From the IMG/VR virus record IMGVR_UViG_3300042558_004043: DNA of 64,000 bases; one strand, given 5' to 3'. Under the pieces are notes generated by a model. That model was not told where the DNA came from and searched no databases. It saw only the letters and a list, made by a program, of their open reading frames with translations. Position numbers and translations under genes: made by a program. This stretch comes from a virus (Duplodnaviria; Caudoviricetes). Positions 6,070 through 7,303 of the stretch are shown here, piece after piece (position 1 is the first letter of the stretch; every line of letters starts with the position of its first letter).

Positions 6070-6343
6070 TTTGCTTGTCTGGTGAGTATTTATCCTTATA
6101 TTTGTAAAAGATTTGACACCTACAGGTGATGAAAGATACTCGGAAAGTTAAATCAAAAAAAAAATACAAATAAATTTGGTAGATTGAAAAAGTCACCATA
6201 TATTTGTAAAGGATTTGAGACGGACAACGATTAAGATACAAGTCTCGAATCTTAAAAAAAGTTTAAGAAAAATTTGACAGAACGAAAAATTTGACTTAAA
6301 TTTGTAAAACAATTCGGGAATGACCGAAGAAGTTCTTTGAAAA
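6070..6343 (+). promoter_or_regulatory. Three tandem Bacteroidota-type promoters plus a boxB-like hairpin and boxA
   Basis: -7 elements at 6097-6104, 6199-6206 and 6297-6304, each with (T)TTG 19-20 nt upstream. Hairpin TTCGG-GAATGA-CCGAA 6313-6328, then AGTTCTTTGAAAA 6331-6343. Confidence 0.75.
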
Positions 6344-6344
6344 G

Positions 6345-7183
6345 TAAGATTATCCATTCAGTGAAAGTAACCTTCGGGTGATGACAACTGATAAAAGATA
6401 ATGGGCCGTGTATGGTCCTTAAATAAACTACGAAAGTAGGATAAAGTGACCTCCCCCGTGTTGAGGAGGTTGCGGTTTCGAAAGGAACTCGAGTACACAA
6501 GTGGGATATCACAAGACCTTTAGTACCGAGGGTAACACTGTAGGGAAAGTGGTCAGGTGACTTGGCAAAGTGGATTGTCAAGTTGAGGTGGGAACACCAA
6601 CAAGAATAACCCATAGGAATCAAGTAAGAAACGTAGCTCCAACTACACAATTGCGGATTCCAATACCGAAGGGGATTTAAAACCGAAAGGTAAGGTAGAG
6701 AACGAGTGGTGTCGCTACTACCCCTAAAGATGACCTACCAAGGTCTCTTTATGAAGTAATCTGAAAGTATGGAGATAGGGATATCTCACGGAGTAGTTTA
6801 GTATTTCGTCGCCCAAAAGGAGACGGAGCTTAAGGTGGACCACTACTCTGACACATCCACGACACAAATCTAAAATTATGAACAATAATTAAAGGAAAAG
6901 TGTCCATCAGGTTTGAGTGAAAGGTCACTACACAGTCACGGGTTGTCCGTGGCACAGAAAGACCCCAAGTCTAACTGTAGTTTTACGAAAAACCTTTAAT
7001 CCCGCAAGGATGAACTGGGGTGGCAACCTCGGAAAGAGTTAAGTAATAAGAGAGTAACTTAAACCTCAAGGAGTGGTAAACCTAAAAGACCGTGACTGAG
7101 AAATACTTCTCAAAAGGAAGTGGATAAGAAGGGAAACAATAATCCTTCAAAAGGTTCTCACTCAAAGCTGTAATCTCAGGCTT
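6345..7183 (+). ncRNA. GOLLD-like giant structured RNA (~840 nt)
   Basis: GC-elevated, ORF-free region with many GAAA/GCAA-capped stems. Motifs recalled from GOLLD (GAGGTGGGAACACC, GGAGTAGTTTAGTATT, 3' GTAATCTCAG hairpin). A tRNA follows immediately, as is typical for GOLLD. The 5' end is approximate. Confidence 0.72.
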
Positions 7184-7199
7184 AGTTCAACTATTACAT

Positions 7200-7272
7200 C
7201 GCAACTTAGAGCAGAGGCCAGCTCGTCAGGCTCATAACCTGAAGGTCGGAGGTTCGAATCCTTCAGTTGCAA
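7200..7272 (+). tRNA. tRNA-fMet(CAT), initiator type
   Basis: C1:A72 mismatch in CGCAACT/AGTTGCA; D stem GAGC/GCTC; TCAGG-CTCATAA-CCTGA; GGAGG-TTCGAAT-CCTTC. Confidence 0.9.
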
Positions 7273-7280
7273 CAAATCAC

Positions 7281-7303
7281 AGGTGGGGAAACCCACCTTT
7301 TTT
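7281..7303 (+). terminator. Intrinsic terminator ending the GOLLD-tRNA transcript
   Basis: AGGTGGG-GAAA-CCCACCT followed by a T run. Confidence 0.85.

Follow-up and report, generated by a model that had tools for sequence, protein, structure and literature searches.

Two questions are raised by the segment at positions 6070–7309 of this phage DNA, namely which kind of product it encodes and why it is preceded by signals resembling those of a ribosomal RNA operon. The analysed stretch of 64,000 nucleotides, referred to here as the window, lies within an IMG/VR virus record of 107,982 bases, which was rated as 37% complete by CheckV. A first-pass annotation had described the segment as a GOLLD-like giant RNA transcribed like an rRNA operon, with three consensus promoters about 100 bp apart, boxB and boxA, about 840 nt of structured RNA, a tRNA-fMet and a strong terminator, and had expected very high early expression in the context of a Bacteroidota jumbo phage with tmRNA and bS21. 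The present analysis leads to the conclusion that an uncultivated freshwater jumbo phage transcribes 6070–7309 as a single stable-RNA unit, and this explanation as a whole is given a probability of roughly 0.8.

The firmest part of the answer concerns the identity of the RNA. A search with the Rfam GOLLD model RF02032, set beforehand as the test that could refute the assignment, returned a match at 6789–7182 on the plus strand, which spans model positions 1–416 of 416 and reaches 321 bits (E 4e-91), more than twice the gathering score of 150 bits. The matched segment includes an A/T-rich linker at about 6848–6895 and corresponds to the conserved 3′ domain, the only part covered by the model. 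Upstream of it, about 385 nt form a 5′ domain of the env-38 type (6401–6788, plus strand). A comparison by eye revealed that the start of this domain at 6401 has nearly the same sequence as the start of the env-38 cryo-EM construct, which is listed in the supplement of Kretsch et al. (Nature 2025, PMC12286853). Moreover, the 5′ domain can be aligned with 14 other phage GOLLD copies, and its helices display compensatory changes. For the whole RNA, RNAalifold predicted 160 pairs from the 15 copies, 93 of which show compensatory changes (at least one sequence changed on both sides with pairing kept), and many of these 93 pairs fall in the 5′ domain. Folding of 6404–7182 yielded −225 kcal/mol (z = −3.96). 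Counted from the third promoter, the RNA up to 7182 is about 870 nt long, and from the conserved 5′ start about 780 nt; the first-pass annotation had put the structured RNA at about 840 nt. In conclusion, it is almost certain that the RNA is a GOLLD, and the locus encodes a full-length copy of the env-38 type, about 780 nt in length. The family is already known, and the locus adds another copy to it; the promoters, the hairpin, boxA and the spacer stem-loop described below are all situated outside the published GOLLD boundary.

Protein coding on the minus strand is a negligible alternative, since the three ORFs present there (6252–6650, 132 aa; 6035–6241; 6724–6885) all lack a Pfam match, the region matches an RNA family, the helix substitutions among relatives are compensatory, and RNA abundance is limited to the GOLLD body, far above the neighbouring genes. 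On the plus strand, no ORF of at least 50 aa is found between 6058 and 7336. The idea of a new large non-coding RNA which merely resembles GOLLD can draw on the fact that the Rfam model is confined to the 3′ half and leaves the 5′ 385 nt unscored. However, this reading is refuted by the full-length 321-bit match, and the unscored part opens like env-38 and aligns to other GOLLD loci with covariation, which renders such a novelty scarcely conceivable. The related boxA-GOLLD loci described below come from viral contigs fetched by the GOLLD 3′-end motif. Three of the fetched sequences (L012/L030, L032 and L033) match this motif, gave no match to the Rfam GOLLD model and were rejected as GOLLD.

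In front of the RNA, three matches to the Bacteroidota promoter pattern (TTTG, 17–23 nt, TAnnTTTG) are arranged in tandem on the plus strand at a spacing of about 100 nt. Promoter P1 (6070–6104) combines a −33 element TTG/TTTG with the −7 element TATATTTG. Promoters P2 (6175–6206) and P3 (6273–6304) both have a −33 TTTG and a 20-nt spacer, followed by the −7 elements TATATTTG and TAAATTTG, respectively. P1 is kept in five relatives (L022, L024, L029, L031 and L002) and P3 in most relatives; transcription from P3 would start near 6310. The leader of P2 contains a stable hairpin (6210–6253, plus strand; −14.3 kcal/mol, z = −5.0). A scan of the 64-kb window gave 14 matches to the pattern, compared with 6.1 ± 2.6 in shuffled sequences, and only one out of 100 shuffles reaches 14. 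Since 6070–6304 is the sole site in the window with three matches inside 235 nt, the earlier description of three consensus promoters forming the densest promoter cluster of the window is borne out.

Immediately behind the inferred P3 start, two further elements are found. The first is a hairpin at 6313–6328 (plus strand), boxB-like by position, in which a 5-bp stem TTCGG/CCGAA encloses a loop of 6 nt. The second is the boxA-like element GTTCTTTGAAAA (6332–6343, plus strand), positioned directly 3′ of the GAA which follows the hairpin and about 22 nt past the P3 start, so that both the boxB and the boxA of the first-pass annotation have a counterpart in the leader. The 11-mer core of boxA has one exact copy in the 64-kb window against 0.07 expected, and copies with one mismatch occur in the window at chance level only. 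Between boxA and the GOLLD body, an optional stem-loop (6349–6402, plus strand) folds at −12.3 kcal/mol; it is found in most relatives and is missing from L002, L009, L038 and L042.

The arrangement has a close parallel in the rRNA leaders of Bacteroidota. The comparison covered 62 Bacteroidota loci in which 400 nt or more of sequence precede the 16S 5′ end. The strict boxA motif is present in 12 of these leaders in sense orientation, always 100–195 nt upstream of 16S, and in only 1 of the 62 in antisense orientation. A less stringent core, (G/A)TTCTTTGA or GATCTTTGAAAG, is contained in 34 of the 62 leaders, a count made without a control. In Chitinophagaceae and Sediminibacterium, the rRNA leaders are composed of a hairpin, AAAA and GTTCTTTGAAAG, which is the arrangement seen at 6313–6343.

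In about 17 distinct loci, the same boxA word also precedes the 3′ end of GOLLD by 780–920 nt; these loci are kin to each other, so that locus counts do not represent independent events. In an alignment of these loci boxA is fixed and preceded by at least six unrelated hairpin sequences, all of which pair. Two boxA-GOLLD loci carry promoters of the sigma-70 type together with host-appropriate boxA variants (GCTCTTTGAAA or GTTCTTTAAAA), so that the feature extends beyond a single host group. In a complete relative of 321 kb, the exact boxA word occurs only twice, upstream of GOLLD and upstream of an operon of tRNA and structured RNA, and in the 635-kb phage LR745206 two hairpin-plus-boxA units are found within one array of promoters, tRNAs and GOLLD.

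A different interpretation of these signals would accept the GOLLD as genuine and regard GTTCTTTGAAAA and its hairpin as a processing site, as the binding site of another factor or as a promoter-proximal sequence that was simply inherited; on this view, the tandem promoters would be mere duplications devoid of rRNA-like logic. The P2 and P3 regions indeed share a 55-nt direct repeat of 71% identity, and the leader hairpin 6313–6328 alone is no more stable than shuffled sequence (z = −0.8). In addition, boxA is missing upstream of GOLLD in phiCbK and in the L011 and L017 lineages and is not universal to GOLLD, and the 11-mer is short, so that its conservation could serve another purpose. However, an inherited or unrelated sequence is at odds with a word that is identical to the one in rRNA leaders of the probable host phylum, where its distance from a hairpin is similar, and which stays fixed where the flanks diverge, even under a different promoter type. 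The word is rare genome-wide, both exact copies in the complete relative head stable-RNA operons, and phage NusG co-occurs with it. Taken together, this alternative appears rather unlikely. The boxA at 6332–6343 itself is somewhat favoured as a working element, a judgement which, like the antitermination role ascribed to it, rests on sequence. To that extent, the description as an RNA transcribed like an rRNA operon holds: boxA is the Bacteroidota rRNA leader word, it is kept in about 17 loci, and the RNA is extremely abundant.

NusG, a component of the antitermination complex, is encoded by all four complete boxA-GOLLD relatives and by the 635-kb LR745206 (5 of 5), with lengths of 173–184 aa. 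The protein of the 321-kb relative possesses a KOW motif and scores 142 bits, above the NCBIfam cut-off of 136 for the housekeeping NusG equivalog. No NusG was found in the 108-kb record holding the window, a fragment of 37% completeness, nor in the complete genome of phiCbK, the GOLLD of which is without boxA. Due to the small numbers and the relatedness of the phages, the co-occurrence of boxA-GOLLD and NusG is suggestive only.

At the 3′ side of the unit, ARAGORN and Rfam both identify an initiator-type tRNA-Met(CAT) without encoded CCA (7200–7273, plus strand), which starts 18 nt downstream of the GOLLD end. The ARAGORN cloverleaf displays a CAU anticodon, C1 opposite A72 and A11:U24, which agrees with the tRNA-fMet named in the first-pass annotation. 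In the anticodon stem, G30:C40 and G31:C39 are G:C pairs and 29:41 is A:U; the host-type initiator tRNAs used for comparison have all three G:C pairs. The tRNA shows 85% identity to the initiator tRNA from a Sediminibacterium genome, with which it has C1/A72, the A73 end and the lack of an encoded CCA in common, and the C1/A72 end is also common to initiator tRNAs of Chitinophagaceae. The strong terminator likewise proposed is found at 7281–7309 (plus strand), where a stem at 7281–7298 is followed by the T-run TTTTTTATTTTT. The hairpin has a GAAA loop on a stem of 7 bp, 5 of which are G-C (−13.3 kcal/mol, z = −3.8), and in three relatives (L014, L024 and L029) the stems differ yet still pair.

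The order of GOLLD, a 17–18 nt spacer, a C1/A72 tRNA-Met and a hairpin with T-run recurs in seven distinct loci. In other lineages, a different tRNA-Met is placed at +128 and precedes a tRNA-Gly, or a tRNA lies within the linker. L002, the closest relative, shares the promoters, boxA and GOLLD of this locus and is without the tRNA. Consequently, the tRNA is not needed to make GOLLD, and release by RNase P, a reasonable inference for the tRNA at this locus, is not the general way in which GOLLD ends.

Evidence that the unit is transcribed in nature comes from river water. Six river metatranscriptome runs contain 55–65% of the words of the window, and for three of them, possibly from one campaign, depth was compared with that of the DNA run X1 over window positions 2000–12000. 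The RNA depths are those of contigs summed over relatives of at least 90% identity, in runs chosen for holding this RNA; as contig depths they indicate presence and rough dominance, are a poor measure of level and carry no strand or transcript ends, and in these terms they amount to 12,900–35,800 in the bin 6342–6675, 3,800–8,200 in the bin 6676–7009 and 520–2,360 in the bin 7010–7343. The protein genes on both sides of the GOLLD unit have RNA depths of 0–6 and the tmRNA contig depths of 5–80. RNA contigs identical to the window reach 600–3,900. In the DNA run X1, depth is mostly 13–19 and rises to at most 148 in bins of the GOLLD region and 172 at the tRNA island. The comparison of RNA and DNA runs rules out DNA carry-over and reveals a very abundant RNA. 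Both the RNA interpretation, for which absence of a transcript had been named as the refuting condition, and the expectation of very high expression are thereby supported: a transcript is found, with a summed contig depth of about 500–36,000 over 6342–7343 versus 0–6 in the flanking genes. The high abundance of GOLLD may reflect stability as much as synthesis.

Upstream of this abundant body, RNA depth is only 0.7–5.7 in the bin 6008–6341, which comprises the inferred P3 start together with the hairpin and the larger part of boxA, and in the RNA run X19 the sequence from position 6404 is directly adjoined by an Illumina adapter. These two observations fit removal of the leader from the mature RNA. 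In placing transcript ends, parts of the stretch without RNA-contig cover and contig ends such as the one at 7124 were left out.

With respect to the phage itself, relatives with the same locus are contigs of 294–483 kb which are rated 98–100% complete, one of them with terminal repeats, and this size justifies the term jumbo phage. The host is probably a member of the Bacteroidota, perhaps of the Chitinophagaceae, as suggested by the kind of promoter, by the leader, which matches those of rRNA genes in this phylum, and by the Sediminibacterium-like tRNA; the best 14 DNA runs holding the stretch, mostly labelled as lake-water metagenomes, are counted among the evidence for this assignment as well. 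On both points, phage size and host phylum, the earlier proposal of a Bacteroidota jumbo phage is sustained. A search of 151 sampled Bacteroidota genomes detected no GOLLD, which fits carriage by lytic phages and proves nothing. A search of a phage collection yielded no close relative; LR745206 was the only match extending beyond the tRNA part (24% coverage), and the other 49 records matched in the tRNA part only.

The predicted translation-related neighbours are present, too. A phage tmRNA (Rfam RF00023, 93 bits) is encoded at 7821–8198 on the minus strand, convergent with the GOLLD unit; unlike Rfam, ARAGORN reported no tmRNA in the window. A bS21 gene at 23213–23371, also on the minus strand, matches Pfam PF01165 (Ribosomal_S21) with 29.5 bits at a cut-off of 27. 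Within the DNA examined, a tmRNA beside GOLLD was found at none of 16 other GOLLD loci, and of the loci compared only this clade and phiCbK have a tmRNA next to GOLLD. The idea of a conserved GOLLD-tmRNA module was dropped, given that the adjacency is missing from these 16 loci.

Comparison with known systems places the locus between phage RNAs and host rRNA operons. In rrn operons, leaders comprise tandem promoters, classically two, a boxB-like hairpin and boxA, and an antitermination complex is formed by NusA, NusB, NusE and NusG. The phage unit resembles them in its tandem promoters, in a hairpin followed within 3 nt by GTTCTTTGAAA as in Bacteroidota 16S leaders, in a long untranslated structured product with a tRNA predicted to be co-transcribed, in the absence of the leader from the abundant RNA and in the NusG encoded by phage relatives. 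In contrast to rrn operons, the product is a phage RNA instead of rRNA, three promoters replace two, and at the locus no stem formed by sequences on either side of the mature RNA has been established. As in Caulobacter phage phiCbK and in the tRNA arrays of Mycobacterium, GOLLD is situated among tRNA genes. phiCbK moreover has a (permuted) tmRNA and a tRNA-Met beside GOLLD, but contains a tRNA-Gly inside the GOLLD linker and is devoid of boxA and NusG, whereas here the tRNA follows GOLLD.

Among the GOLLD RNAs, env-38 has been solved as a homo-14-mer cage (Kretsch et al., Nature 2025, PMC12286853). The RNA described here shares with it the near-identical 5′ start, the full-length match to the 3′ domain model, the A/T-rich internal linker, the phage location beside tRNA-Met and a length of about 780 nt. 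It differs in coming from a freshwater phage with Bacteroidota-type promoters, env-38 being marine, and in being about 50 nt shorter than the 830-nt construct. Like ROOL RNA, a large, very abundant and cage-forming phage RNA encoded near tRNA islands (PMC12286853), GOLLD belongs to the cage-forming kind, is very abundant and lies near tRNA, but the two are unrelated in sequence and fold, and Rfam gave no match to ROOL in the window. No mention of a boxA or antitermination leader for GOLLD was found in the searchable open-access literature.

Starting from the observed family membership, the signals with their conservation and the high abundance of an RNA with its leader missing, a course of events can be proposed for the unit. 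Host RNA polymerase would start at the three tandem host-type promoters P1–P3 and generate a precursor, the first nucleotides of which carry a hairpin and a boxA, the latter identical to that of host rRNA leaders. On this boxA, host NusB/NusE and NusG, the last of these possibly phage-encoded as in the relatives, may assemble and protect the polymerase from Rho and from pausing while it transcribes about 1 kb of untranslated, strongly folded RNA, in the manner of rrn operons. The leader including the stem-loop 6349–6402 would subsequently be removed, leaving a 5′ end at about 6401–6404. From the same precursor, the initiator tRNA would be released by RNase P, and transcription would stop at 7309. 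By homology, the body of about 780 nt (approximately 6401/6404–7182) is expected to assemble into a protein-free multimeric cage like that of env-38.

A more far-reaching proposal, speculative and improbable as a conjunction of all its parts, is that the production of GOLLD in huge phages of Bacteroidota imitates the rRNA operon of the host. Phage NusG and host Nus factors acting on boxA would then permit Rho-proof synthesis at the level of rRNA, and after the leader had been cut off, the cage RNA and the initiator tRNA, derived from one precursor, might jointly act on translation initiation or on ribosomes, for instance by retaining or supplying tRNA-fMet or ribosomal subunits while the host is taken over. 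In both schemes, the binding of Nus factors, the sites of processing, the formation of a cage and any effect on translation are inferred from the features described above.

To our knowledge, GOLLD has had no known function since 2009. The locus presents a GOLLD whose tandem promoters, hairpin and boxA give it the build of a stable-RNA operon of the host. Its relatives with a boxA leader encode their own NusG, one lineage adds an initiator-type tRNA 17–18 nt behind GOLLD, and in natural river samples GOLLD greatly outnumbers the transcripts of its neighbours. These findings do not reveal the function of the RNA, but a leader and a putative mature 5′ end are now defined for testing. In combination, the operon-like build, the NusG of the relatives, the fusion to a tRNA and the abundance over neighbouring transcripts suggest that GOLLD is needed in ribosome-like amounts.

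Besides the GOLLD unit, the window contains another stable-RNA unit at positions 1587–2650. It opens with a −7 box, TATATTTG (1587–1594), directly followed by a boxA variant, GTTCTTTAAAA (1600–1610). Downstream of this variant extends about 1 kb without any plus-strand open reading frame, and the sole reading frame overlapping it encodes 153 amino acids on the minus strand (1493–1954). This ORF-free part harbors tRNA-Lys(CTT) at 2078–2151 and tRNA-Ile(TAT) at 2570–2644; outside of these two tRNAs, no Rfam family was matched within the unit. In the river metatranscriptomes, the summed contig depth across 2334–2667 amounts to 27–55. 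The equivalent operon in the 321-kb relative is headed by an exact boxA.

On the minus strand, a phage tmRNA is located at 7821–8198. It is preceded by a separate −7 box, TATCTTTG, and followed by a terminator with 12 bp at 7788–7815; ARAGORN missed this gene. Provided that the resume codon in the Rfam alignment is correct, the predicted tag would be GNVINKLSAVGLIRTEENISVA, which is long and differs at its end from the usual ALAA. Neighboring the GOLLD/tmRNA region are the minus-strand genes 4486–4938, 9380–10204 and 10618–12666, among which a cREC_REC domain protein (a domain with a context in cyclic-phosphate RNA repair), an M20-like peptidase and a double AAA+ protein of the ClpA/ClpB type (682 amino acids) are found. 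Together with tmRNA and bS21, these proteins make up a loose translation/proteostasis neighborhood.

Phage-encoded NusG is present in the 321-kb relative (L170:1501–2022, corresponding to G156:C1:250261–250782), where it scores above the cut-off of the housekeeping NusG equivalog model, in the 635-kb phage (LR745206:485898–486203) and in the complete relatives G157, G158 and G159 as well. The 33 kb preceding the NusG gene of G158 contain four exact copies of the boxA word, which share one strand.

Directly 5′ of GOLLD, the 635-kb phage carries an array (L006:3000–3720, LR745206.1) of three Bacteroidota promoters and two hairpin-plus-boxA units, which also includes a long-arm tRNA, a tRNA-like element and a tRNA-Met; the position of tRNA-Met upstream of GOLLD resembles that reported for env-38. 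In L017, a short GOLLD lacking boxA is immediately preceded by an element of about 85 nt, at approximately −1000 to −920 nt relative to the 3′ end of GOLLD. Starting with GGGGATGATAC and ending with GGTTCGACTCCATCCATCTCCAC, this element resembles an acceptor domain of the tRNA-like or tmRNA-like kind.

In L002, the closest relative, unrelated sequence (L002:7364–7700) replaces tRNA-fMet and terminator immediately 3′ of GOLLD. Moreover, the middle of its GOLLD 3′ domain is far more diverged than the flanks, a pattern suggesting recombination between GOLLD alleles.

A different arrangement is displayed by the GOLLD region of Caulobacter phage phiCbK (L169, JX163858.1:103600–106200). Here, a tRNA-Gly is enclosed within GOLLD, and a tRNA-Met and a tmRNA of the permuted, two-piece type are oriented divergently to it. 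GOLLD is preceded by a Caulobacter-type promoter; boxA is absent in front of it. Being a cultured phage, phiCbK could serve as a system for studying GOLLD function.
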